A stretch of DNA of 48,404 bases from a virus (taxonomy: Duplodnaviria; Heunggongvirae; Uroviricota; Caudoviricetes): IMG/VR virus record IMGVR_UViG_3300045988_155859; one strand, given 5' to 3'. Numbering within the stretch: position 1 is the stretch's first letter; every line of letters starts with the position of its first letter. Both the position numbers and the translations under genes were made by a program. Shown in pieces: positions 1 through 48,404 of the stretch. The notes beneath the pieces are model-generated. The model did no database searches. It worked only from the letters and a program-made list of their open reading frames with translations, and was not told the DNA's origin.

Positions 1-55
1 AATCAATAAGTTATACCATAAACGTACGTTTTCGTTCCATTGGCCCTCAAACCCC
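1..55 (-). mobile_element. Tn3-family (gamma-delta/Tn1000-like) terminal inverted repeat, left copy: 35-bp IR at 21-55 plus 20 bp of element interior (1-20)
   Basis: 21-55 is the exact reverse complement of 48350-48384 (GGGGTTTGAGGGCCAATGGAACGAAAACGTACGTT). It carries the GGGG terminus and TGGAACGAAAAC...ACGTT core that I recall from Tn3-family IRs. GGGG end faces the phage DNA; the interior faces the window edge. Confidence 0.75.
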
Positions 56-1057
56 TAGCTTGAGCTGAGGATTCAGGTTTTCGTCAAAGCTGATAAGTGC
101 TCTGGCGTTTCTGAGCAGATCAAGAAGTAAGGCTGATATCACATTTTCCTGAGTCATTGCTGGCAGATTTAGCGCCGCTTTGGTTTTCCCTGTTGCCTTG
201 TCAAACGCCTTGATTAGTTCCTTCCTGTAGTTCGGTTCCGTTAATAGCCGATTATGCTCTGTTGCCGCGCGGATAATCGTTTTTTCCTGGTACAGTCGTT
301 TAGCCAGATCACGCTCGTACTGTGTTTTTAACACGCTGCTGATAGCGTTAAAGGCTTCAATGTAGGCCAGCTTGATATCTTTCACGCTTGGACCGTCGAT
401 GCTCTCCATGAGCAAGGTAAATCCGTCTTTTGTCATGCGATAGATTGTTATTTCGCGGTCGCTTCCTTCCAGCGGTCGTTGCTCTTTAAAGAAGTGACGC
501 GCCGCAGCCGTGCGAGGAATGCGTAGCGCATCGATGGCCATAACGATGGAATTGTTTGTGGTGCTGAATGCTTGGGCAACATCGGCTGAGGTTGTGAGTG
601 GCTCGTTGTTGCACACTTTAATGTAAAACATCGGTTTGGCGTTGAGCGTATCGACAACCTCACGAGCATTGTTTGGCGAGACGGTTACGGTCGCGGCCGT
701 TTGCGCGTTCTGGCTGAAATAGCAGTCTTCCAGCCGTTCGAATACATCCCACGCCTGATCGGTTTCGAGCATTTTGGCGTGACGTGCAGCCCCGCGTTCT
801 GTCCAGAGAATGAGGGAGCGGGCATTTTTACCAACTAACCCGATTGTTTCAGGTCTGTTCTTGAACTCGCGTAATTCGTTTTTTTCAATTTTAAAGTAAT
901 GCTTTCCGGCTATGAATCGCGTCGTGTTGTTCAGAAAGTTATCAGAAATGTTTTTGATTTTTGTTCCGTATAACTGCGCCAGAAGTTCAGTTGTAATAAC
1001 GGGGATCTGGTTATGCAAGATAGGCTGTAGGGTGTTAACGGTCGGAAGCGTTTTCAT
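47..1057 (-). CDS. Phage antirepressor (ORF6N-like N-terminal region, Ant/KilA-C-like C-terminal region); 3' end replaced by transposon IR sequence
   Basis: 336-aa ORF with RBS GGGAGGTG before the ATG and ATGA overlap with the upstream small ORF. The last two codons and TGA stop (47-55) lie inside the inverted repeat, so the native C-terminus is missing. Confidence 0.65.
   Translation of the reverse strand: MKTLPTVNTLQPILHNQIPVITTELLAQLYGTKIKNISDNFLNNTTRFIAGKHYFKIEKNELREFKNRPETIGLVGKNARSLILWTERGAARHAKMLETDQAWDVFERLEDCYFSQNAQTAATVTVSPNNAREVVDTLNAKPMFYIKVCNNEPLTTSADVAQAFSTTNNSIVMAIDALRIPRTAAARHFFKEQRPLEGSDREITIYRMTKDGFTLLMESIDGPSVKDIKLAYIEAFNAISSVLKTQYERDLAKRLYQEKTIIRAATEHNRLLTEPNYRKELIKAFDKATGKTKAALNLPAMTQENVISALLLDLLRNARALISFDENLNPQLKLGV
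56..60. repeat. 5-bp target-site duplication TAGCT (left copy); partner at 48345-48349
   Basis: TAGCT lies immediately outside both IR termini in direct orientation, the 5-bp duplication size expected for Tn3-family insertions. Confidence 0.7.
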
Positions 1058-1245
1058 TTTGCACCTCCCATAACTACTTTGGTTACGAGGGAGATTTTTG
1101 CGTCAGAAACAGCGTTATCGTTGCTGGCGATGCGCATAGCTTCGCGCTCGATGATTTCAGCTAGGCGGAATTTATCGGCGTATGAGGCTTTCTTGAGAAG
1201 GATCTTTACGAGGTTGACGTAATAGTCATGGGGTAAGTTTGTCAT
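1054..1245 (-). CDS. Hypothetical small protein, first gene of the antirepressor operon
   Basis: 63-aa ORF whose stop overlaps the antirepressor ATG (ATGA), suggesting translational coupling. Confidence 0.4.
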   Translation of the reverse strand: MTNLPHDYYVNLVKILLKKASYADKFRLAEIIEREAMRIASNDNAVSDAKISLVTKVVMGGAK

Positions 1246-1602: not shown

Positions 1603-2001
1603 TTCTTTCGTGCTGATCGGATTCGCGGTCCTTTCAGCATAACGTCGTTGTATAAACAACCACGCAAGCACAAGCAGCAAGTTAATTTTACCCAAAAGGT
1701 AATAATAGTCCACTATTATGCTTCAAAAAATTGTGGTTCTTGTTGTGCCTGCAAACTCACAGATTGTGGGTAGGTTACTGATTTTGTGAAAATAAACGAG
1801 TTTTTTCGTTTAATTTCTTTCCTATTACTAATCTTAAAATAATCGTAAAATACCTGTGGACCTTCCCGCCGATTCGCACCCGGGCACCGACTTTAGGGGA
1901 GGATTCTCCGTTGCCGTACATGCAAGCACAAGCAGCCGTGCTTGCTCTCGCGTTGTTTTCGTCGGTGGGGATGCCGTGAAACGGCCTGTAAGGGCCATAC
2001 A

Positions 2002-2124
2002 ATGAAAAAATACTGTATGTGTATTTTTATCGTTGTTACTGGGGCTTTGTTTACGCCACATGGGGAGGGTTGGAAGATTACTGATAACGCTCTGAATGTG
2101 ACGATAAACATTAGCAGCAAGTAG
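2002..2124 (+). CDS. Candidate small hydrophobic peptide (40 aa)
   Basis: MKKYCMCIFIVVTGALF... hydrophobic N-terminus, with a strong terminator immediately downstream; no recognisable family. Confidence 0.2.
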   Translation: MKKYCMCIFIVVTGALFTPHGEGWKITDNALNVTINISSK

Positions 2125-2129
2125 CGATT

Positions 2130-2153
2130 AGGCCCCTTCGGGGGCCTTTTTTA
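2130..2153 (+). terminator. Intrinsic terminator
   Basis: Perfect hairpin AGGCCCC-TTCG-GGGGCCT followed by TTTTTT. Confidence 0.7.
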
Positions 2154-3936: not shown

Positions 3937-4593
3937 TCATAACCAGTTGACAACACTAACTACGCGGCCAAGAACTTTATAACGCTTAAATTCCTCGTTA
4001 TTCAGATGCTTAGTGTTCATTTCAGCATCCCTTTCGGTTGACAGCATAACAGCATTGTCACCCGGTATGACTCTACAGTGCCTCAAAACAACCAGGCCAT
4101 TTCTGTCTTCAAGGGCATAGATCCCCTCATGAATCTCTGTATCGTCTGTATTAATCAGGACTTGGGAGCCTGGGGATATTGTTGGTGACATTAACTCATC
4201 GTTGCTCTGGAGAACTGACAGAGACGATGGGTTGATGTTCTTGCTTCGTAGAATCTCCTGTTCTATCGCCAGCACTGGCTTTTCTCCGGCGTGCGATGCT
4301 ATGTCATTTTTTATAGCTACAAGCCCAGGAATAACAGGAGCGTTAGTATTCTGGGGTGGGAACGGGTTATCTGTTAAGCACGCGATATAAGGCGCTGATG
4401 CTTTCAGGGCGTGCGCGATTTTCTTGATGGCAGGTATAGATGGTTGTCTTAATCCGGCCTCATAGTTCTGCAAGGTGCTTAAGCCTATTCCAGTGACTTG
4501 CTGGAGATCTCCGGCAGTCATGCCGGATTGTTTCCGTAGAGTCTGAATGCGCAGACCTATTTCTTTCTTGATGTTCTCGTCGTTGCTTTTCAT
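3937..4593 (-). CDS. cI: CI-like repressor (N-terminal HTH, C-terminal LexA/S24-like domain)
   Basis: 218 aa: N-terminal HTH region (GMTAGDLQQVTGIGLSTLQNYEAG), linker, then a C-terminal domain with conserved Ser and Lys candidates. Divergent from the Cro-like gene across an operator-rich intergenic region. Confidence 0.8.
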   Translation of the reverse strand: MKSNDENIKKEIGLRIQTLRKQSGMTAGDLQQVTGIGLSTLQNYEAGLRQPSIPAIKKIAHALKASAPYIACLTDNPFPPQNTNAPVIPGLVAIKNDIASHAGEKPVLAIEQEILRSKNINPSSLSVLQSNDELMSPTISPGSQVLINTDDTEIHEGIYALEDRNGLVVLRHCRVIPGDNAVMLSTERDAEMNTKHLNNEEFKRYKVLGRVVSVVNWL

Positions 4594-6740: not shown

Positions 6741-7118
6741 GTGAGACGCGATCTGGATAGCTTGTTTGAGCTATGGGCGCTGTGGGTGCGCAATGGCTGC
6801 AACGCCCGTAGCGGTTTCGCGTCGATGTTAGAAATGATGATGGTTACGCGCTGCCAGTTTACCGGAGGGGGCGGCGCACCAAATGACTCACTGGAAACCA
6901 GTATAGAGGGAGCGGTGACGGCCCTCACGGTAGTTGATGAGACTGCGGCGCTGGTTGTCCGAATTGAATACGGGGCGTGGGAGATTCGGGGCCTCGACAT
7001 AAATGCACCGCATATTGATAAAGCCCACGCCCTTTCTCTTAGCCTCAGACAGTATCGCCGGAAGCTGGCAAAAGCCAGGGCGTATGTTGTCGACTATTTG
7101 AAAAAGCGAAGAGAGTAA
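6741..7118 (+). CDS. Possible Q-like antiterminator or late-gene regulator
   Basis: GTG-start 125-aa ORF at the end of the early-right operon, immediately upstream of a repeated promoter/leader cassette (the syntenic position of Q in lambdoid phages); sequence similarity itself is weak. Confidence 0.3.
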   Translation: MRRDLDSLFELWALWVRNGCNARSGFASMLEMMMVTRCQFTGGGGAPNDSLETSIEGAVTALTVVDETAALVVRIEYGAWEIRGLDINAPHIDKAHALSLSLRQYRRKLAKARAYVVDYLKKRRE

Positions 7119-7287: not shown

Positions 7288-8355
7288 ATGAATAAACAAG
7301 TAATTATTTCTGACTGGATCAACAACCCTAACAGCCTGTTAAGCACTGATACTGGCTACCTATTACGCCATGTTAATGGTCGTATGGTCAAAAGCGATGA
7401 GCACGAAACCTTTTTCTTTGTTGAAGACGATGGGCGTATCTATGAGGATGGTTACTCTTATGAAGCCCAAACTGGTTGTATCCCTGCGGAGCTGGTGGAT
7501 GTAACAGAAGATCTGCGCAAAGCATGGCTTGAACAGCAGCAGCGCGGAGATGATTACGTAAACACCTATCAGGAACGCCAGAACGCGCGTCTTGCCCGAT
7601 ATATTGCTCGTGCAGAAAAAGCCAGAAAAGAAGGTGCGGTAGCGCATAAGCGAGCGCATGACCTGTTGGATGTGATCCCGTTAGGCCAGCCGATTTTAGT
7701 TGACCATTATAGCGCGAAAGGCCATCGCCGCCGTTTGTCTAAAGCTGATGCGTTATTCAGAAAAGCGTTTGTTGAATGCGAAAGTAAAGCATCACACTAC
7801 GAGAGCAAAGCCGCAGGTGTTGGTCGTAATGGAATTTCGTCTGATGATCCTGATGCGCTATTTAAGTTGCTTCGTAAGCTGCAAGGCTGCATGAAGTCAC
7901 ACGTCAAAATGAAGGCCGCAAATAAGGCCATTCGCAAATACAAAAAAGACCAAATACAGCAGCTTTCTGCATTAATCGATCTCAGGTTTACAGAAAGCGA
8001 AGCCAAAGAGTTACTGGCCGGAGATTTCTGTGGGCGCATCGGATTCCCTTCATACGCACTGAGCAACAATAACGCCGAAATCAAACGACTACAGAGCCGT
8101 ATTAAGGAGCTTGAATCGGTCAAGTCTGTAACAGGAGCACAGCGCGAAGAATACGACGGCTTTTCTATGGAGATAGATCCAGAGGATAACCGCATCCTGT
8201 TTTATTTCCCTGGCAAACCAGAGGCAAACATTCGTTCGCTGCTTAAATCACGCGCCTTTAAGTGGAGTCCAACCCGTAATGCATGGGTTCGCAAGATTAC
8301 TCCAAACGCCCTGGCTGATGCCCGATATCTGAAAGAATCGCTATTGAAAGCCTGA
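7288..8355 (+). CDS. DUF3560-like protein
   Basis: 355 aa with GQPILVDHYSAKGHRRR motif, which I associate with DUF3560; first gene downstream of cassette copy A. Confidence 0.45.
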   Translation: MNKQVIISDWINNPNSLLSTDTGYLLRHVNGRMVKSDEHETFFFVEDDGRIYEDGYSYEAQTGCIPAELVDVTEDLRKAWLEQQQRGDDYVNTYQERQNARLARYIARAEKARKEGAVAHKRAHDLLDVIPLGQPILVDHYSAKGHRRRLSKADALFRKAFVECESKASHYESKAAGVGRNGISSDDPDALFKLLRKLQGCMKSHVKMKAANKAIRKYKKDQIQQLSALIDLRFTESEAKELLAGDFCGRIGFPSYALSNNNAEIKRLQSRIKELESVKSVTGAQREEYDGFSMEIDPEDNRILFYFPGKPEANIRSLLKSRAFKWSPTRNAWVRKITPNALADARYLKESLLKA

Positions 8356-8387
8356 CAGTAAGCCTACGGCGGGATGTCTCCCGCCGT

Positions 8388-8411
8388 ATATAGAATTATA
8401 TATTTATATAA
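8388..8411. repeat. AT-rich motif cluster (ATAGAATTATATATTTATATAAATG)
   Basis: Same TATA-rich motif family, upstream of the 8412 ORF. Confidence 0.45.
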
Positions 8412-8714
8412 ATGTATAAGGACGCCTCGACAATGAAACGCAAAATTATTAACCCCCAAGATGTGATTAATTTCCTGACCGATCACCCATGTTCAAAAGT
8501 GGACGTAATCGCGGAGCACATTGGTGTGTCGCAGAACTCTATGCGTTGCAGACTGAGAAGCATGGTTGCCGAAGGACAGATAACAACCAGGAAAATAAAT
8601 GGTTGCCTGTACTACTCCGCTAAACCGGAATTGCCATTTGGCATGAATCCTAACTCCATGTTGTTTAACACCTTATTAGCCAAAGTTAAGCCGTTGAGAG
8701 GGGCTGTGGCATGA
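8412..8714 (+). CDS. Putative winged-helix DNA-binding protein
   Basis: 100-aa ORF with VDVIAEHIGVSQNSMRCRLRSMVAEGQI helix-turn-helix-like segment; true start may be the internal Met at 8433. Confidence 0.4.
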   Translation: MYKDASTMKRKIINPQDVINFLTDHPCSKVDVIAEHIGVSQNSMRCRLRSMVAEGQITTRKINGCLYYSAKPELPFGMNPNSMLFNTLLAKVKPLRGAVA

Positions 8715-9076
8715 GCATCAAAACACATACCGGAATAATCATTACCAATGATGGTGAGAAAAAAGTGAAGTTGCGCGAGACGCCGACAACCTGGTGTGTT
8801 GGTCCGAAAGAAACATATCGCAAGGAAGATGGCCGTCGTTGTGGGGCACCACTTTCCCGCCGTCGCCTCCTTTTGAGCACGATAAAACCTATCGGGCAGG
8901 TTGAGCAACCAACGACTCCGGTAACGAAGATTTCAGACAAGAGTCTGGCAAACCTGATCGCCGATGCGGACAAGGTGCTGGAGCGGAACACCCCAGTAGC
9001 CGATGAGGAATGGTGGCAGGATTTCCGAGCCGCAATGCTAGAGCTTCAGGAACGTCGTCGGGAGGAGTTGAAGTGA
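8711..9076 (+). CDS. Hypothetical protein
   Basis: 121-aa ORF with stop/start overlaps on both sides. Confidence 0.4.
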   Translation: MSIKTHTGIIITNDGEKKVKLRETPTTWCVGPKETYRKEDGRRCGAPLSRRRLLLSTIKPIGQVEQPTTPVTKISDKSLANLIADADKVLERNTPVADEEWWQDFRAAMLELQERRREELK

Positions 9077-9081
9077 GCAAG

Positions 9082-9702
9082 ATGAAAGAGCGCGGCATGA
9101 TTTTTAATGATGCGATGGTCAGGGCCATCCTCGAAGGCAGGAAGACGCAGACTCGTCGACCTGTAAAAAATGTCAGGGCCGATAACTGCCTGGTTATCCG
9201 TAAACCGACAAAGAAACGCAATGGTGTCTATACCCACGTTATGGATGCACCGGAACATGGTTTATGCCCGTTCGGTAACGTTGGTGATCGCATATGGGTC
9301 CGTGAAACATTCAACGCTTTTTGGCTGGATAACGATGTCATTCAGGAAATCAAAGATGGTGTCTCTCTGGCTTCTGAACTGTGTGATTACAAGGCTGATT
9401 ACTCAGATAGTAGCAAGCCAGCTGAGGGCTGGACCCCGTCGATTCACATGCCGCGCTGGGCTTCACGTATTTTGCTGGAAATTACCGACGTGCGTGTGGA
9501 ACGGCTGCATGACATGAGCGAGGCAGATGCTAAAGCGGAAGGCGCATCTCCGGCGACGTACAAGATTACACCGCCGGAAGCTGTTTATCGCGTTGGCTTT
9601 GGTGATATCTGGCGCGGTATTTACGGGCAAGAGAACTGGCTATCTAACCCGTGGGTATGGGTAATTGAGTTTAAACGTATTCAGGGGGCAACCAGTGAGT
9701 AA
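9082..9702 (+). CDS. ASCH/PUA-like domain protein (putative)
   Basis: MIFNDAMVRAILEGRKTQTRR N-terminal motif; start moved to the ATG at 9082, which has a GGAGGAG RBS. Confidence 0.4.
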   Translation: MKERGMIFNDAMVRAILEGRKTQTRRPVKNVRADNCLVIRKPTKKRNGVYTHVMDAPEHGLCPFGNVGDRIWVRETFNAFWLDNDVIQEIKDGVSLASELCDYKADYSDSSKPAEGWTPSIHMPRWASRILLEITDVRVERLHDMSEADAKAEGASPATYKITPPEAVYRVGFGDIWRGIYGQENWLSNPWVWVIEFKRIQGATSE

Positions 9703-9952
9703 TTCCGCACGGCTACAGCTTGGTTTTTCACCGCTATCAAAAACCATCGTGTTGGCCAAAATGCGCGATTTAGGTGACGGAACAAAACGCCGTGTAGGCA
9801 ATGATCGCGGTTGTGATGTAACCAACGAGGCCGCACAACTCGTTTGGCATCTTGTCATGGCAGAAGGCGGTGAAATCAATTGGGAGCTGGATGATGGTTC
9901 TCGCATGGTGTTAAGGGCAGAAAAGCAGGGGGCAAACGATGAAAAACCGTAA
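9695..9952 (+). CDS. Hypothetical protein
   Basis: In-frame GTG at 9695 with AGGGGG RBS and GTGA overlap of the upstream stop. Confidence 0.35.
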   Translation: MSNSARLQLGFSPLSKTIVLAKMRDLGDGTKRRVGNDRGCDVTNEAAQLVWHLVMAEGGEINWELDDGSRMVLRAEKQGANDEKP

Positions 9953-10130
9953 AGCAAAGATGCTTATTTCCCGTGTATACAGACTTTGCTACCCCAGCCA
10001 GTGGTTGAGAGTTAGCAATCGCCGTGTGGTGTTGTTTTCATTTTCTGGAATTGCCAGAGAGGGAGTCAAAGATAAGCGCAGCGCGGCGCAAAACCGCTGG
10101 AAAAACCACTTGCGTACTAAAGGAGAGTGA
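9939..10130 (+). CDS. Hypothetical small basic protein
   Basis: 63-aa ORF ending in the conserved junction GTGATATGG shared by downstream genes. Confidence 0.3.
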   Translation: MKNRKAKMLISRVYRLCYPSQWLRVSNRRVVLFSFSGIAREGVKDKRSAAQNRWKNHLRTKGE

Positions 10131-10131
10131 T

Positions 10132-10341
10132 ATGGCTGTTGCCGCAAGTTACACCATGCATCTCTACTGTGATTGTCGTCAGTGTACAAATGGTAAATAT
10201 CAGTCGCCAGACTTCGGTGAGTATATCGGTACGTCATGGGCAGGCTGTGCAAAAGAGGCGCGCAAGGATGGCTGGCGAATAAGCAAAGACAAAACGCGTG
10301 CTTTTGCGCCCGGGCATAAAGTTTTGAGGATTAATAAATGA
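10132..10341 (+). CDS. Hypothetical Cys-rich small protein
   Basis: Start at the internal Met with AAGGAGAG RBS; MAVAASYTMHLYCDCRQC... Confidence 0.4.
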   Translation: MAVAASYTMHLYCDCRQCTNGKYQSPDFGEYIGTSWAGCAKEARKDGWRISKDKTRAFAPGHKVLRINK

Positions 10342-10787
10342 CCACTATTACCAAAGAACGTGCGGAGATTAAATCATTCATCACAGGCTTCCTGAGCGAC
10401 CCGGCGCACGATAACCAATCTTCAAGCAGTCTGCTTGCCAATGTGTTTCGTATCGCACTGGCATCGTTGGAAGCAGAGCCAGTCGCGTGGCGATATCGCT
10501 ACGTGAAAAAAGGCGTTACGGACTCTCAGGGGGAGCCGTGGGTTGGTGACTGGAAATATGTACCGACAAAAGAGGATTGCAACGACAGGCCGAGCTATGA
10601 AATTCAGGCGTTATTCACTCCCCCGCCTGTGCCACTGATACCAGAAGGATTGATTAAAGCAGTGCGCTTCTATGAACAGGTTAAGCGTGAAAATCCGCCA
10701 GTCGAAACCGGAGCATGGAAAGACGCTGTTGACTGGGTTCTCGAAGAGGCTTGTCAGGCTGTAAACATTGGCATCAAAGGAGGGTGA
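10338..10787 (+). CDS. Hypothetical protein, member of the IALASLEAE paralogue family
   Basis: Contains FRIALASLEAEPVAW; related motifs in the 11080 and 11495 ORFs. Confidence 0.45.
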   Translation: MTTITKERAEIKSFITGFLSDPAHDNQSSSSLLANVFRIALASLEAEPVAWRYRYVKKGVTDSQGEPWVGDWKYVPTKEDCNDRPSYEIQALFTPPPVPLIPEGLIKAVRFYEQVKRENPPVETGAWKDAVDWVLEEACQAVNIGIKGG

Positions 10788-10788
10788 T

Positions 10789-11076
10789 ATGGCAACTTTG
10801 CAGGAATTAATCGACCTGACGCCAGAACAGGAAAAAGCGTGGAATCGCCTTGTAAAGGCTGTAAAGGATTTCAGGGCAGCCGGAGGAAAGTTTTATAGCG
10901 TCCTGGACACGCTGAGCGCATACAACGGCGAGCACGTTGCCAGCATTGATAACGATAAGGGCTACCACACTGCAAGCGTCTATATGCCTAGCATTGATGC
11001 GCCAGGGCTAACCAGTTGGGCTGATGATTGGCACGGCATCACGCTGAAAGATGGGGTTGAAGTGGATGAGGACTAA
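10789..11076 (+). CDS. Hypothetical protein
   Basis: Start at the Met following GGAGGGTGATATGG; 95 aa. Confidence 0.4.
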   Translation: MATLQELIDLTPEQEKAWNRLVKAVKDFRAAGGKFYSVLDTLSAYNGEHVASIDNDKGYHTASVYMPSIDAPGLTSWADDWHGITLKDGVEVDED

Positions 11077-11079
11077 CAC

Positions 11080-11493
11080 ATGACTACTTTTACCGACAAA
11101 GAACTGATTAAAGAAATCAAAGAGCGCATAGGCAGCCTGGACGTCCGAGACAATATTGAGCGTCGGGCTTATGAAATTGCTCTGGCATCGCTGGAAGCAG
11201 AGGCAGTTATGTTCTGTATATCAGGACAAAATGTAGATTCAGAAGAACATGTATCAACCAGCAAAGCGGTTGTTGATGCCTGGGTTGAAGAATGGAATCA
11301 GGTTGACGGAAGTCCTGGCGAACCACTGTACAAAACTATGCCACTCTACTATCACGCTGCCTTGCCAGCGCCGGTAGTGCCGGATGAAATGTATTGGCAG
11401 GATGCGCCAGTTGAAGGCAGCAGCAAAGCGGCTGCATACGCTACAGGCTGGAATGCCTGCCGCGCCGCCATGCTTCAGGGGAAAGGGAAGTGA
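11080..11493 (+). CDS. Hypothetical protein, IALASLEAE paralogue
   Basis: Contains AYEIALASLEAEAV. Confidence 0.45.
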   Translation: MTTFTDKELIKEIKERIGSLDVRDNIERRAYEIALASLEAEAVMFCISGQNVDSEEHVSTSKAVVDAWVEEWNQVDGSPGEPLYKTMPLYYHAALPAPVVPDEMYWQDAPVEGSSKAAAYATGWNACRAAMLQGKGK

Positions 11494-11494
11494 T

Positions 11495-11770
11495 ATGGCT
11501 ACTTTTACCAAAGAGCAATTGATTGCCCATATTCGTGAACGTAAGGAAGCGCGCCAGAGAATGTTGGATACGGTAACTATTAACCCCGGATTTCGTGAAT
11601 ATCTTGAAAGAGAGCTTGCTACAGATGAAATTGCACTGGCATCCCTGGCATCTGCACCTGTTGCATGGCTAGTTGGAGGGCGTTTGTTCACAACTGAGAT
11701 AGCTGCGGGGATGTACGCTAGTGAGGTGAGGAAAGCAGTTAAGCCGCTATTCTTTTCTGCACTACTGTGA
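11495..11770 (+). CDS. Hypothetical protein, IALASLEAE paralogue
   Basis: Start at MATFTKEQ after GGGAAGTGATATGG; contains EIALASLASAPVAW. Confidence 0.4.
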   Translation: MATFTKEQLIAHIRERKEARQRMLDTVTINPGFREYLERELATDEIALASLASAPVAWLVGGRLFTTEIAAGMYASEVRKAVKPLFFSALL

Positions 11771-11914
11771 GTATTGTTTTTTTATTGATCGATTAACCAC
11801 ATTTTGAAGGTTTTTTTATGGGGAAACCTTGTTTTAGGTGGTAACTGGGTGTAGTGTTTCATTTAACGTAGTAAAACTGCGTTAAGCGATTACCGCGTAA
11901 TTTGTTGCTTTATG

Positions 11915-12639: not shown

Positions 12640-13168
12640 GATTTTTAACAGCATTCTTGGAAAAGAGGGCGGCTATGTGGATCACCCTGACGACAAGGGA
12701 GGCCCAACAAAGTGGGGCATTACTCAGAACACTGCCCGTGCTCATGGATACCGTGGCGATATGCGCGATTTAACCCGCGAACAGGCACTAGAAATCCTTG
12801 AGGCTGATTACTGGTACGGACCACGCTTTGATCAGGTGGCCGCATTATCCTCTGATATTGCCGCAGAGCTGTGTGATACCGGTGTGAATATGGGGCCAAC
12901 AGTGGCGTCCAAAATGCTTCAACGCTGGCTGAATGTGTTCAATCTGCGTGGGAAGCTGTATCCCGATTTGGATGCAGATGGACGAATCGGTCCACGTACC
13001 ATTAATGCGCTGCGTGCTTATCTTGGGAATCGGGGAAAAGACGGCGAACGGGTGATGCTGACGTCGCTGAACTGTACGCAGGGCGAACGCTATCTGGAGT
13101 TGGCGGAGAAGCGCGAGGCGAATGAGTCGTTTGTCTACGGCTGGATGAAAGAGCGAGTGGTGGTATGA
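12626..13168 (+). CDS. Endolysin, GH108-type muramidase with peptidoglycan-binding domain
   Basis: N-terminal EGGYVDHPDDKGGPTKWGIT motif characteristic of GH108 lysozymes. Confidence 0.8.
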   Translation: MTKDEIFNSILGKEGGYVDHPDDKGGPTKWGITQNTARAHGYRGDMRDLTREQALEILEADYWYGPRFDQVAALSSDIAAELCDTGVNMGPTVASKMLQRWLNVFNLRGKLYPDLDADGRIGPRTINALRAYLGNRGKDGERVMLTSLNCTQGERYLELAEKREANESFVYGWMKERVVV

Positions 13169-13736: not shown

Positions 13737-13812
13737 GGCCCCTTAGCTTAGTGGTTAGAGCAGGCGACTCATAATCGCACGGTCATCGGTTCAAATCCGG
13801 TAGGGGCCACCA
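13737..13812 (+). tRNA. tRNA with anticodon CAU (Met, or Ile if lysidine-modified)
   Basis: 76 nt folding by hand into a cloverleaf: 7-bp acceptor stem (GGCCCCT/AGGGGCC), D-arm GCTT...GAGC, anticodon loop CTCATAA, T-loop TTCAAAT, encoded CCA end. Confidence 0.8.
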
Positions 13813-21127: not shown

Positions 21128-22984
21128 ATGGGCGAAACAGTATGGAGCACCGCTTTTTTCCGTGCGCTTCGCCCTAAATCACGGCTAACTGTTTCCGAAT
21201 GGGCTGATAAGTATCGTCATGTAGCGCCGGGAACGTCTCCAGAGCCAGGGCCGTGGCGTACAAGCCGAGTGCCATATTTGCGTGAACCAATGGATGTTAT
21301 TGGTGACGCTGATACAGAAACAGTAGTGATGCAATGTAGCTCGCAAATTGGTAAATCCGAATTACAGCTAAATGTTATGGGTTACTTTGCAGATCAGGAG
21401 CCATCTCCTCAGTTGATGATTTATCCAACGGTAGAGGCGGCTGAGGCTTTTTCAAAAGAGCGTATTGATCCGACGTTCAAATATTCCCCTGGTTTGAAAC
21501 ACAAGCTGCATGAAGGGAAAGAGGGGCGCGGTGCAGCCAAAAAGTCCAGCACGACTATACGTATGAAGCATTACGCTGGTGGATATATAGCACTTGTTGG
21601 TGCTAATTCCCCAGCAGGTCTTGCATCCAGGCCAATTCGAATACTGTTAGCTGATGAGATTGATCGTTACGGTGTGACGCAGGAGGGCGACCCACTAAAA
21701 CTAGGTATTCAGCGTACTACCAACTTTCATAATCGTAAGAAAGTTTTTGTTTCTACTCCTGTTTTGGAGGAAACAAGCAAAATCCACAAGTGGTTTAAGC
21801 TCTCCGATCAGCGTTACTACCATGTTCCTTGCCCATGTTGTGGCACCATGCAGGTGATGAAATGGTCGCAAGTCAGATGGGATAAGAGCGATTCAGGTGA
21901 GGCGTTACCGGAAACGGCCAGATATGAGTGCTGTGAGTGCGGCGGGATTATGCGCGGATCTGGTAAACCAGACGTTGATTGGTTGGCGAAGGGGGTATGG
22001 ATAGCTGAACATACTGGAGTTAAAGGTATTGTTGGTTTTCATATTAACAGTCTTTACTCCCCGTGGGTTGCATTGTCAGAGCTGGTTGAAGAATTTACGG
22101 AAGCAACCAGAAACCGCGATAAAAATGGATTAATGGAGTTTATTAACCTTAAGCTGGGTGAGCCATGGAAAGAGGATGCTAAAGACGATATCGATCCTGA
22201 ATACTTGTTGCAACGCAGAATAAGGTTTGAAGAGTTTTTACCAGATGATGTTTTATTGTTAAGTGCTGGTGTTGACGTACAGGACACGTATTTAGTTTGT
22301 GAATTGGTCGGTTGGGGAAAAGGTAAGGAGTCATGGGGGATAGAATATAAAATATTCCCAGGTGATCCCGCACAAGATGTTGTCTGGAAACAACTTGATG
22401 AATACTTACTCCGTAGCTGGTCATTCCGTGACGGTCGAAAATTACAGATTTCTTCCGTTTGTATTGACTCTGGTGGGCATTTTACGACAGAGGTATATCG
22501 CTTTACTAAGCCGAGAGAATCAAGGCGAATATACTCTATCAGGGGGCGTGGTGGGGTAGGTTTACCATTTATAGGAAAGCCAAGTAATAATAACCGTGTG
22601 GGTGCTATGTTGTTTAATTTGGGGGTTGATGATGGTAAAGGGACCATCATGGCAAGAATTAAACTACATGATCCTGGTCCTGGTTATATGCATTTCCCAT
22701 TAGATTCTGACAGAGGATATGATACCGAATACTTTAAAGGATTATTATCAGAGAAAAAAATATTTGAATATAAAAATGGGCAGACAAAAGAAAAGTGGGT
22801 GAAAGTCTACGAGCGTAACGAGCCTCTTGATTGCCGTAACTATGCAACTGCCGCGATGGAAATTCTGAACCCTAATTTTAACTGGCTTGCCGAACAGGAA
22901 ATGCGAGGTAATGTGTATGTGCAGAACTCGTCAGGTATACGTAGAAGACGCCGTAGAGTTATAAGTAAAGGCGTAACCATATAG
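21128..22984 (+). CDS. Terminase large subunit (lambda gpA-like)
   Basis: 618 aa; N-terminal VSEWADKYRHV...PGPWRTSRVPYLREPMD pattern as in gpA-type terminases; ATPase and nuclease-length regions. Confidence 0.85.
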   Translation: MGETVWSTAFFRALRPKSRLTVSEWADKYRHVAPGTSPEPGPWRTSRVPYLREPMDVIGDADTETVVMQCSSQIGKSELQLNVMGYFADQEPSPQLMIYPTVEAAEAFSKERIDPTFKYSPGLKHKLHEGKEGRGAAKKSSTTIRMKHYAGGYIALVGANSPAGLASRPIRILLADEIDRYGVTQEGDPLKLGIQRTTNFHNRKKVFVSTPVLEETSKIHKWFKLSDQRYYHVPCPCCGTMQVMKWSQVRWDKSDSGEALPETARYECCECGGIMRGSGKPDVDWLAKGVWIAEHTGVKGIVGFHINSLYSPWVALSELVEEFTEATRNRDKNGLMEFINLKLGEPWKEDAKDDIDPEYLLQRRIRFEEFLPDDVLLLSAGVDVQDTYLVCELVGWGKGKESWGIEYKIFPGDPAQDVVWKQLDEYLLRSWSFRDGRKLQISSVCIDSGGHFTTEVYRFTKPRESRRIYSIRGRGGVGLPFIGKPSNNNRVGAMLFNLGVDDGKGTIMARIKLHDPGPGYMHFPLDSDRGYDTEYFKGLLSEKKIFEYKNGQTKEKWVKVYERNEPLDCRNYATAAMEILNPNFNWLAEQEMRGNVYVQNSSGIRRRRRRVISKGVTI

Positions 22985-45056: not shown

Positions 45057-45300
45057 GGCTTTCGCGTCGAAAATGAGGCGAAACTGAAAACGAGATTTCA
45101 TTAACAAATAAGCAACATAAAAAACGGTGGAAAACGCCCAGGAAAACATGATCTTTTGAGCGGATTTTTTAGATCCGACAATGAACGGTGATCCGGTGGT
45201 GCCGATAACGTCCATTATGTTAAATAGCCCCGTTTTTCTTGAAATTATAACTCACAGGTTATATAGTTAGTGATATAAACTACAGGTTATAGGATTGAGC

Positions 45301-45648
45301 ATGTGGACGGTACTTTTTAGCCAGCGATTTGACGACTGGCTAAATGAGCAAGAAGACGCTCTTCAGGAAAAGGTTTTGGCTGATTTGAAAAAGCTACAGG
45401 TTTACGGACCTGAGTTACCCAGGCCATATGCCGATACCGTAAAAGGTTCTCGGTACAAAAATATGAAAGAGCTTCGCGTTCAGTTTTCTGGCCGTCCGAT
45501 AAGAGCCTTTTATGCGTTCGATCCGATTCGCCGGGCCATCGTTCTTTGTGCAGGAGACAAAAGTAACGATAAGCGGTTTTATGAAAAACTGGTGCGTATA
45601 GCTGAGGATGAGTTTGCAGCACATCTGAACACACTGGAGAGCAAGTAA
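45301..45648 (+). CDS. RelE/ParE-superfamily toxin (HigB-like)
   Basis: ...DTVKGSRYKNMKELRVQFSGRPIRAFYAFDPIRRAIVLCAGDKSNDKRFYE... typical of this toxin family; stop overlaps the antitoxin start. Confidence 0.75.
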   Translation: MWTVLFSQRFDDWLNEQEDALQEKVLADLKKLQVYGPELPRPYADTVKGSRYKNMKELRVQFSGRPIRAFYAFDPIRRAIVLCAGDKSNDKRFYEKLVRIAEDEFAAHLNTLESK

Positions 45649-45947
45649 TGAGAACATTAGATGAGGCGATTGCCAGCCGTTCACCTGAAAGCCAGGCGCG
45701 AATTAAAGAAATGGCAGATGAGATGATTCTTGAGGTCGGCTTGCAGATGATGCGTGAAGAACTCCAGTTATCACAAAAACAGGTTGCTGAGGCGATGGGT
45801 ATAAGCCAGCCAGCAGTAACAAAGCTGGAGCAGCGCGGAAATGATTTAAAGCTGGCGACATTAAAGCGTTACGTTGAAGCTATGGGAGGCAAATTAAGCC
45901 TGGATGTTGAGCTTCCCACAGGAAAACGAATAGCGTTTAACATCTGA
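45648..45947 (+). CDS. HTH (XRE-type) antitoxin, HigA-like
   Basis: ...LQLSQKQVAEAMGISQPAVTKLEQ... HTH; ATGA overlap with the toxin gene. Confidence 0.75.
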   Translation: MRTLDEAIASRSPESQARIKEMADEMILEVGLQMMREELQLSQKQVAEAMGISQPAVTKLEQRGNDLKLATLKRYVEAMGGKLSLDVELPTGKRIAFNI

Positions 45948-47467: not shown

Positions 47468-48004
47468 CAGTCTGAAATTTAAATCTTGCTTGGTAGGCTG
47501 GATTTAAAAAGACACCTCTTGATTGGGGCGGCTTTCTTGCGTCTAAAGATAATCAAATCTTTTTGCGCCTGCAACCCCTTTTTTACTGGTGCCCATTTCA
47601 GACTCACGCTCGCGTCGTTGTCTTTGCCACTTCGTTGGGTTCGGTGTTTTTGGGCGAAGTGGCGCGCGGGTATGCGTACAAGGGGAAAGTGTGCTGACGC
47701 AAGCCAGGAACAGCGATCTAAACTAAGTCGAGTCTGAGAAAGGCAGGAGTGCGACAACTCGCCTGTGCTCTATGAGCAGAAGAAGGTATATCAGACGACC
47801 AATGGCATGATTGTGGGCCACAGGGCGCACACGGCGGCGAAGCATTGGAAACAATGTGGAGCTATCTGGTGGCATGAGTTCCGGTACTCGATCTCGAGCT
47901 TTTTTTGATGCTTTTGAGAAGGGGCCGGAACTCCGGTAAAGGGCACCCTGTATGGGGGGAGGGGGGGGTGTGTCTGAAGGGTGGTTATCGGTTATGGTGG
48001 AATT

Positions 48005-48193
48005 ATGATGCGTAGAAAAGCGAGTTTGCTGCAAGCTATTGGGTCCATTATTTCTTTGTTTCCGGCAGTTGATCATTTTCGTCATATGGCGACGCGTTCC
48101 AGTATGGGCTTGGCGCGTGATGCTGACGCTATTCGAAAGGATTTTCAGAAAGTCTCTGGCGTTGATAAGAGAGAAAAGAGTAAGGGGCCGTAG
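48005..48193 (+). CDS. Candidate small ORF
   Basis: 62-aa ORF from the ATG at 48005, convergent with the displaced antirepressor 3' end and sharing the hairpin at 48183-48201; weak support. Confidence 0.2.
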   Translation: MMRRKASLLQAIGSIISLFPAVDHFRHMATRSSMGLARDADAIRKDFQKVSGVDKREKSKGP

Positions 48194-48203
48194 CCCCTTG
48201 TAG

Positions 48204-48349
48204 TTATGGTCTGCTTTTCTGTGCCAGCTTATCAGCACATGTTTTTATCAGATCCTGTAGTGTCTTGGCTGGCAGGTTTGCATCCAGTACGCTGAGTATG
48301 CTGTTGTGATCAGCTTGGTCGACTACTTTGCCTGTCGGTGGTAGTAGCT
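48204..48349 (-). pseudogene. Displaced 3' fragment of the antirepressor gene (about 46 codons)
   Basis: Deleting the element and one TAGCT copy joins 48349 to 61 and extends the antirepressor frame by ...LPPTGKVVDQADHNSILSVLDANLPAKTLQDLIKTCADKLAQKSRP to a TAA at 48204-48206, followed by a hairpin at 48183-48201. Confidence 0.6.
48345..48349. repeat. 5-bp target-site duplication TAGCT (right copy)
   Basis: Identical pentamer to 56-60, abutting the GGGG terminus of the right IR. Confidence 0.7.
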
Positions 48350-48404
48350 GGGGTTTGAGGGCCAATGGAACGAAAACGTACGTTAAGGAGATAATTCGTT
48401 GTTT
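48350..48404 (+). mobile_element. Tn3-family (gamma-delta/Tn1000-like) terminal inverted repeat, right copy: 35-bp IR at 48350-48384 plus 20 bp of element interior
   Basis: GGGGTTTGAGGGCCAATGGAACGAAAACGTACGTT followed by AAGG, close to the Tn3 IR as I recall it (GGGGTCTGACGCTCAGTGGAACGAAAACTCACGTTAAG). Perfect inverted copy of 21-55. Confidence 0.75.

Follow-up and report, generated by a model that had tools for sequence, protein, structure and literature searches.

The question raised by this locus is whether the antirepressor-like gene at one end of a 48,404-nt stretch of Caudoviricetes DNA (henceforth the window, i.e., the whole stretch that was analysed) ends at its native stop codon or was cut by an insertion, and what such a cut would mean for the phage. 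The gene occupies positions 47-1057 on the minus strand and encodes 336 aa, comprising 334 native residues and a terminal Gly-Val from an inverted repeat. An earlier note on this DNA had assigned the last two codons and the stop codon of the open reading frame (ORF) to the inverted repeat, and position-by-position reading confirmed this assignment. The last native codon (L334, CTA) lies at 58-56, within the left copy of a TAGCT target-site duplication (56-60), and is followed by G335 (GGG, 55-53), V336 (GTT, 52-50), and TGA (49-47), all of which derive from the inverted repeat.

The right copy of TAGCT was located at the far end of the window (48345-48349). As the earlier note had claimed, removal of the element together with one TAGCT, i.e., joining of position 48349 to position 61, restored an in-frame continuation of 46 codons (48344 down to 48207; LPPTGKVVDQADHNSILSVLDANLPAKTLQDLIKTCADKLAQKSRP) ending in a TAA at 48206-48204, and thus an ORF of 380 aa. 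This orphaned 3′ end (48204-48344 including the TAA, minus strand) is without any start codon. The hairpin described behind the restored stop codon was also present, starting 4 nt downstream of it (48182-48199, minus strand); it consists of AAGGGGC-TACG-GCCCCTT with a GC-rich stem of 7 bp, is followed by a T-rich run, and resembles a terminator at the native end of the operon that is now separated from its gene by the transposon. It overlaps the stop codon of a convergent 62-aa ORF (48005-48193, plus strand). The same convergent ORF is contained in the annotation of plasmid pMB9698_3.

An open frame of 46 codons has a probability of about 0.1 by chance and is not significant alone. The case for an insertion was regarded as decisive because the repaired gene showed 0 differences over 1,143 nt to the intact gene of pMB9698_3 (NZ_CP103471.1), and because the empty site is contiguous in relatives. 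In the uninterrupted pMB9698_3, TAGCT is present as a single copy (21961-21965), at which both ends of the window converge. The repaired junction was contiguous in at least 56 plasmids of about 48 kb with identities of up to 99.9% (hosts: E. coli, E. albertii, and E. fergusonii), as well as in three Yersinia phages (vB_YpM_39, 41, and 44), where the 380-aa coding sequence is annotated. A 238-aa “Rha family” annotation in pMB9698_3 was considered as a disrupted version of the gene and rejected, as it reflects a different start call while the 380-aa frame is intact. The insertion junction itself was absent from 72,556 PLSDB plasmids and 5,426 complete RefSeq E. coli genomes, and no member of the family in PLSDB carried an interruption in the antirepressor-like gene. 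The restored extension is identical to that of the intact alleles, so the claim that the gene was cut by the insertion and that its native 3′ end survives beyond the element holds, and the conclusion that the insertion removed the native C-terminus of the antirepressor-like gene is supported.

The inserted element was identified as Tn1000 (gamma-delta). The end distal to tnpA (1-55) and the end proximal to tnpA (48350-48404) each matched Tn1000 of the F plasmid in 55 of 55 positions (12927-12981 and 7001-7055 of the F region compared, respectively). Both ends contain a perfect 35-bp terminal inverted repeat starting with GGGG (GGGGTTTGAGGGCCAATGGAACGAAAACGTACG...; 21-55 and 48350-48384), which occurs only these two times in the window, with 0 occurrences expected by chance. 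In the F plasmid (NC_002483), the two matching Tn1000 ends are located on the same strand and in the right relative orientation at a spacing of exactly 5,981 bp; tnpA, tnpR, and a 698-aa ORF lie between them. Of tnpA, no more than the final 22 nt fall within the window, with the stop codon at 48385-48383 (minus strand); in the F-plasmid copy, the tnpA coding sequence ends at 7034 in the same F-region numbering. Transcription of tnpA points toward the orphaned gene fragment, and a fusion to this fragment is impossible.

Only 55 bp of each transposon end are contained in the window, probably the k-mer overlap left where a contig built from short reads with k = 55 runs into a repeat; in the real molecule, the first and last positions of the window would consequently be connected through about 5.9 kb of absent transposon. 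Given these ends, we infer a simple insertion with the interior of the element lying outside the window. The transposase and the resolvase were read in L004, a metagenome scaffold with the same truncation of the gene (1002-aa DDE_Tnp_Tn3 protein and 183-aa resolvase).

In total, the exact 336-aa product ending in Gly-Val was found on 11 human gut metagenome contigs, with the allele originating from ERR2227917 and ERR2227918 (PRJEB24041), SAMEA104445637, and SAMEA4545544. The allele-bearing contigs differed from the window by 0-1 mismatches, which points to one strain lineage, possibly from related hosts. In L004, the truncated gene is followed by a complete Tn1000 of 5,981 bp (tnpA, tnpR, and the 698-aa ORF) with 99.88% identity to the F copy. 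The scaffold then exits Tn1000 not into the orphaned 3′ end but into IncF leading-region DNA with another flanking pentamer. This far junction is either a mis-join over the repeat or a cointegrate junction. In both cases it shows that the same community contains an F-like plasmid with Tn1000, which is the obvious donor. An apparent 12-nt indel between L004 and the window was rejected, as it corresponds to a run of N in the scaffold.

Without the transposon ends, the backbone of the window (56-48349) is a complete circular permutation of the 47.7-kb plasmid pMB9698_3. It carries plasmid genes (RepA, ParA, and a RelE/ParE-type toxin-antitoxin pair) together with virion genes (terminase, portal, head protease, sheath and tube, tape measure, baseplate, and tail fibres), and the host element is a circular myovirus-type phage-plasmid. 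The label is apt since relatives are known both as plasmids and as isolated virions. An assignment to the group of phage-plasmid pSLy3 was rejected because pSLy3 belongs to the SSU5 supergroup, whose size is roughly 100 kb; a literature search returned no paper describing this 48-kb phage-plasmid family. The replicon measured 48,289 bp before the insertion and 54,275 bp with Tn1000, an increase of 12.4% that places it about 2 kb above the largest relative (family range 46.1-52.1 kb).

The repaired protein comprises an ORF6N domain at residues 12-96 (PF10543, 75.4 bits at a cutoff of 27.8), a Phage_pRha domain at residues 155-239, and a C-terminal region (residues ~240-380) without Pfam family. 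It matched phrog_8244, which has no assigned function, over profile positions 1-383 of 383 (E = 3.5e-253), the last 46 positions of which are missing from the 336-aa product, and its N-terminal part matched many PHROG anti-repressor families. Residues 1-150 were 71% identical over 153 aa to AnrP of Gifsy-1 (STM2616, 187 aa), and residues 6-116 were about 90% identical to Ant of Stx phages (e.g., phi24B). Expression of AnrP in Gifsy-1 raises transcription of the antQ operon (PMC4825925), and a knock-out of ant in phi24B lowered late-gene expression after norfloxacin induction to 27-56% of the wild type (PMC3064807).

The gene is preceded by a control module on the same strand. An IsrK-type sRNA was identified at the start of the operon (1411-1484; Rfam RF01394, 70.2 bits at a gathering threshold of 50) with a terminator-like hairpin at 1430-1417, and a C4-type antisense RNA in the operon leader (1299-1386; Rfam RF01695, 84.3 bits at a gathering threshold of 45). 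A 63-aa ORF without Pfam family follows (1054-1245), and its stop codon overlaps the start codon of the antirepressor-like gene (ATGA, 1054-1057), an arrangement suggestive of translational coupling. Coupling of the same kind was demonstrated experimentally for orf45-anrP of Gifsy-1 (PMC4825925). The tandem of IsrK and C4 RNAs also lies ahead of anrP (Gifsy-1) and of ant (phi24B), and the leaders of the window, Gifsy-1, and phi24B align up to the start codon. On the basis of the homology to AnrP and Ant and of the conserved IsrK/C4 leader with its coupled small ORF, the antirepressor label appears reasonable and well supported.

The presumed target of the antirepressor is a candidate CI/LexA-like repressor of 218 aa with an HTH_3 domain (3937-4593, minus strand). 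Its match to Peptidase_S24 was below threshold (18.4 bits vs 23.3). When it was aligned by MAFFT with lambda CI and a provisional LexA sequence, an Ala-Gly fell on the cleavage site of both and a Ser also aligned, but the catalytic Lys did not. The repressor may be inducible by self-cleavage. No LexA box (CTGT-N8-ACAG) was found near the operon; the motif matched once in the whole window (28026), no more than chance would give.

Comparison with homologues, as suggested in the earlier note, showed that, in the 120 clusters of nearest homologues (376-422 aa), not one stops where the truncated ORF stops. The tail was kept in 120 of 120 clusters, all of which end at the same residue, and length differences among them were confined to the N-terminal part. 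The reconstructed extension was conserved also in distant relatives: at identities of 24-55%, the match extends to within about 4 residues of their C-termini, with F324, L328, P330, P336, L363, and L374 as invariant positions. When the C-terminal region alone was searched exhaustively against 1.84 billion representatives, only 7 were retrieved, and this module is, judged by its sequence matches, nearly private to this family. By inserting after L334, the transposon splits a block of the module (SFDENLNPQLKL before the cut and LPPTGKVVD behind it), and the invariant P336, L363, and L374 are lost, while the first ~95 residues of the module are kept in the truncated form. Since the tail is conserved in all near clusters and down to about 25% identity, there is good evidence from conservation that it is functional. 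AlphaFold2 models of the full protein (35-sequence alignment) and of the C-terminal module alone (7 sequences) both contained a beta-hairpin that extends up to the cut and two helices behind it; with pLDDT values below 50, to which residues 222-380 were confined, these elements are to be read as low-confidence predictions. A PDB search with a profile of the C-terminal module and with the full protein returned no related structure, and a literature search for modular Ant proteins with a repressor-binding domain yielded nothing usable.

The best explanation, in which we place high confidence, is a simple Tn1000 insertion truncating the gene, with a hypomorphic antirepressor as the likeliest effect. 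One copy of Tn1000 (5,981 bp), most likely donated by a co-resident F-like plasmid, would have entered the antirepressor-like gene at codon 335, duplicating TAGCT. The event appears to be recent because neither the orphaned fragment nor the gene as a whole exhibits sequence decay. Since the insertion, the gene encodes residues 1-334 plus Gly-Val, and the codons for the last 46 residues lie across the element together with the stop codon and the terminator. As the operon is cut off from its terminator, transcription would now continue into the transposon. Upstream, the control module (IsrK-like RNA, C4-like RNA, and coupled 63-aa ORF) was left untouched, so the 336-aa product is expected to be made under normal conditions and under the same control, keeping the AnrP/Ant-like ORF6N domain and the Rha domain. 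Loss of about one third of the conserved C-terminal module would then leave a destabilised or partly inactive protein, most likely a hypomorph and not guaranteed to be a null. Residual antirepressor activity is quite possible, given that short stand-alone homologues (187-225 aa) are active; destabilisation or a lost interaction is equally possible, given that a conserved module was cut internally.

The earlier note had suggested impaired induction and stabilised lysogeny as the consequence. Weaker induction with stabilised lysogeny is plausible and could go either way, and the simple reading as stabilised lysogeny is weakened by the CI/LexA-like nature of the repressor and by a genome that is 12.4% larger. 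This enlargement may hamper packaging regardless of Ant, and any effect on induction would add to a packaging effect that is possibly the larger of the two.

How much of this depends on the missing tail is the point at which the main rival explanation departs. The truncation could be neutral for antirepression if the activity resided in the intact N-terminal ORF6N domain, and any phenotype would then arise from the 6-kb increase or from the cargo. We consider this a tenable, though less probable, account. AnrP of Gifsy-1 is active when expressed (PMC4825925) although it has only 187 aa, corresponding to residues 1-150 here, and Ant of phi24B (225 aa) joins the same N-terminal domain to an unrelated C-terminal domain; furthermore, the N-terminal domain is variable and mosaic (66% mean identity compared to 96-99% in the rest), as would be expected of a specificity determinant. 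These observations are opposed by a tail that is conserved down to about 25% identity and was never missing in the 120 clusters or in ~60 plasmids, and by the consideration that a cut inside a conserved module would often destabilise the whole protein. Impaired antirepression was rated somewhat above neutrality.

The other two alternatives concern the insertion itself. The window could represent one half of a cointegrate formed through Tn1000 by the phage-plasmid and a conjugative F-like plasmid, with two directly repeated copies of the transposon, each lying between donor DNA and target DNA. The order in L004, i.e., the 336-aa ant, TAGCT, Tn1000, GGTAT, and the IncF leading region with a DUF1380 gene, is that of a cointegrate junction, and short-read contigs cannot separate a cointegrate from a simple insertion. 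L004 is, however, a metagenome scaffold with N gaps, in which the 6-kb repeat is likely to have caused a mis-join, and the element encodes an intact resolvase; gamma-delta resolvase resolves cointegrates efficiently. As the window contains both target junctions with matching duplications, as in a resolved insertion, a cointegrate was regarded as very unlikely. Even less credible is that no insertion took place, with the transposon ends being an assembly artefact, the 336-aa ORF a natural short allele, and the far-end fragment a coincidence. The 55 bp per transposon end do resemble a k-mer overlap, but the empty site has the duplicated 5 bp only once, repair of the gene yields a sequence 100% identical to one that exists naturally, and no homologue ends at residues 334-336. 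Moreover, the 11 contigs that encode the exact product ending in Gly-Val stem from independent assemblies, and some of them reach further into the transposon; this explanation is effectively refuted.

The simple insertion of Tn1000 is a well-known kind of event, and what is new is the insertion site. For annotation, it follows that the 336-aa ORF is to be labelled a disrupted gene, with the ends of the contig joined through the 6-kb Tn1000. The natural truncation allele offers a ready-made probe of the uncharacterised C-terminal module. As a by-product, the immunity module of the family was described, consisting of the IsrK/C4 leader, the coupled small ORF, and a three-module protein (ORF6N-Rha-X). 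If the truncation or the enlargement makes an active phage-plasmid a stable plasmid, the allele would illustrate a route by which phages have been proposed to become plasmids. A further-reaching scenario is speculative and in our judgement unlikely: the phage-plasmid would be (partly) locked in the plasmid state by a crippled antirepressor and an oversized genome, in one gut lineage, and possibly coupled to F via Tn1000 cointegrates. If true, coupling to an F-like plasmid by cointegrates would let a non-mobilisable phage-plasmid spread by conjugation.

Compared to Tn1000 of F, the element agrees in both 55-bp ends, in the 35-bp inverted repeat starting from GGGG, and in the 5-bp duplication; the element itself does not differ, and the insertion site alone is new. 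For the immunity module, the immI region of P1 and P7 provides a parallel on a plasmid prophage, with c4 RNA, icd, and ant1/2 in this order. The logic is the same as here, i.e., a processed antisense RNA of the C4 family followed by a coupled small ORF and an antirepressor, with the likeness drawn at the level of layout; P1 was absent among the best 40 tblastn matches. The isrK-orf45-anrP operon of Gifsy-1 (Hershko-Shalev et al. 2016, PMC4825925) shares the IsrK-type and C4-type leader. In contrast to Gifsy-1, the frame of orf45 closes after 8 codons here and a different ORF of 63 aa lies between the leader and ant; AnrP has 187 aa, whereas the protein of the phage-plasmid has 380 aa and an extra Rha domain and C-terminal module; and Gifsy-1 is an integrated lambdoid prophage, whereas the element here is a plasmid prophage. 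The ant-roi region of the Stx phage vB_EcoP_24B (phi24B; Fogg et al. 2011, PMC3064807) has the same order of ORF6N followed by Rha. No BLASTP similarity was detected between Roi of phi24B and the Rha region of the protein described here. In phi24B, ant and roi are two genes, and the 225-aa Ant carries a P22-type C-terminal domain, whereas in the phage-plasmid family ORF6N and Rha are fused in one protein that ends in a different C-terminal module.

When the window was compared with its closest relative, the plasmid pMB9698_3 (NZ_CP103471.1), a single divergent segment was found at 9082-11773, consisting of patches at 94-97% identity and about 1.4 kb without a match. Elsewhere, the genomes were 99.2-99.97% identical, and the segment is a variable accessory region. 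The phage-plasmid also encodes a tRNA-Met (anticodon CAT; 13737-13812, +). Two neighbouring G runs, GGGGGG A GGGGGGGG, were located at 47953-47970, about 35 nt upstream of a small convergent ORF (48005..48193, +), and are possibly a slippage-prone tract. An ORF pair at 45295-45947 (+), predicted to encode a toxin of the RelE/ParE family and an HTH antitoxin, has annotated counterparts in pMB9698_3 and also matched "HigB2" of a Yersinia phage; this toxin-antitoxin pair is likely a second plasmid-maintenance module.

Past the far end of Tn1000, the metagenome scaffold COST17-1_SAMEA4545544 (L004) continued into leading-region DNA of an IncF plasmid with a DUF1380 gene (8261-9438 of the scaffold), and the pentamer flanking this end of the transposon was GGTAT, not TAGCT. 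Two readings fit this junction: the scaffold was mis-joined at the repeat, or it captures a Tn1000 cointegrate that links the phage-plasmid to an F-like plasmid.

A strong Rfam match to ryfA RNA (141.8 bits; gathering score 80) was detected at 1856-2152 (+), next to the immunity leader with its IsrK RNA and C4 antisense RNA. The match encloses a small hydrophobic ORF (MKKYCMCIFIVVTGALF...; within 1942-2124). In Salmonella, RyfA codes for the small toxin TimP, and the ryfA-like locus on this plasmid prophage could serve as an addiction module.

Within the antirepressor-like protein Ant (47-1057, -), the ORF6N domain (residues 1-100) was the variable, mosaic portion across the phage-plasmid family, with a mean identity of 66% vs. 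96-99% for the remainder of the protein. The N-terminal domains differed by family member and were close to the corresponding domains of Ant from Stx phages or from Gifsy-1. From this pattern of similarities, phage-plasmids and lambdoid prophages appear to have swapped a module for immunity specificity.

The region between leader and ant was compared with the sequence L009 (1367-1504). The ant gene starts immediately after the IsrK/C4 leader in both Gifsy-1 and phi24B. In the phage-plasmid family, this slot is filled by a 63-aa ORF of no known family (window 1054-1245, -), behind which ant is coupled. The frame of Gifsy-1 orf45 is closed after 8 codons in the window. The resulting order of leader, 63-aa ORF, and ant resembles the c4-icd-ant arrangement of P1.
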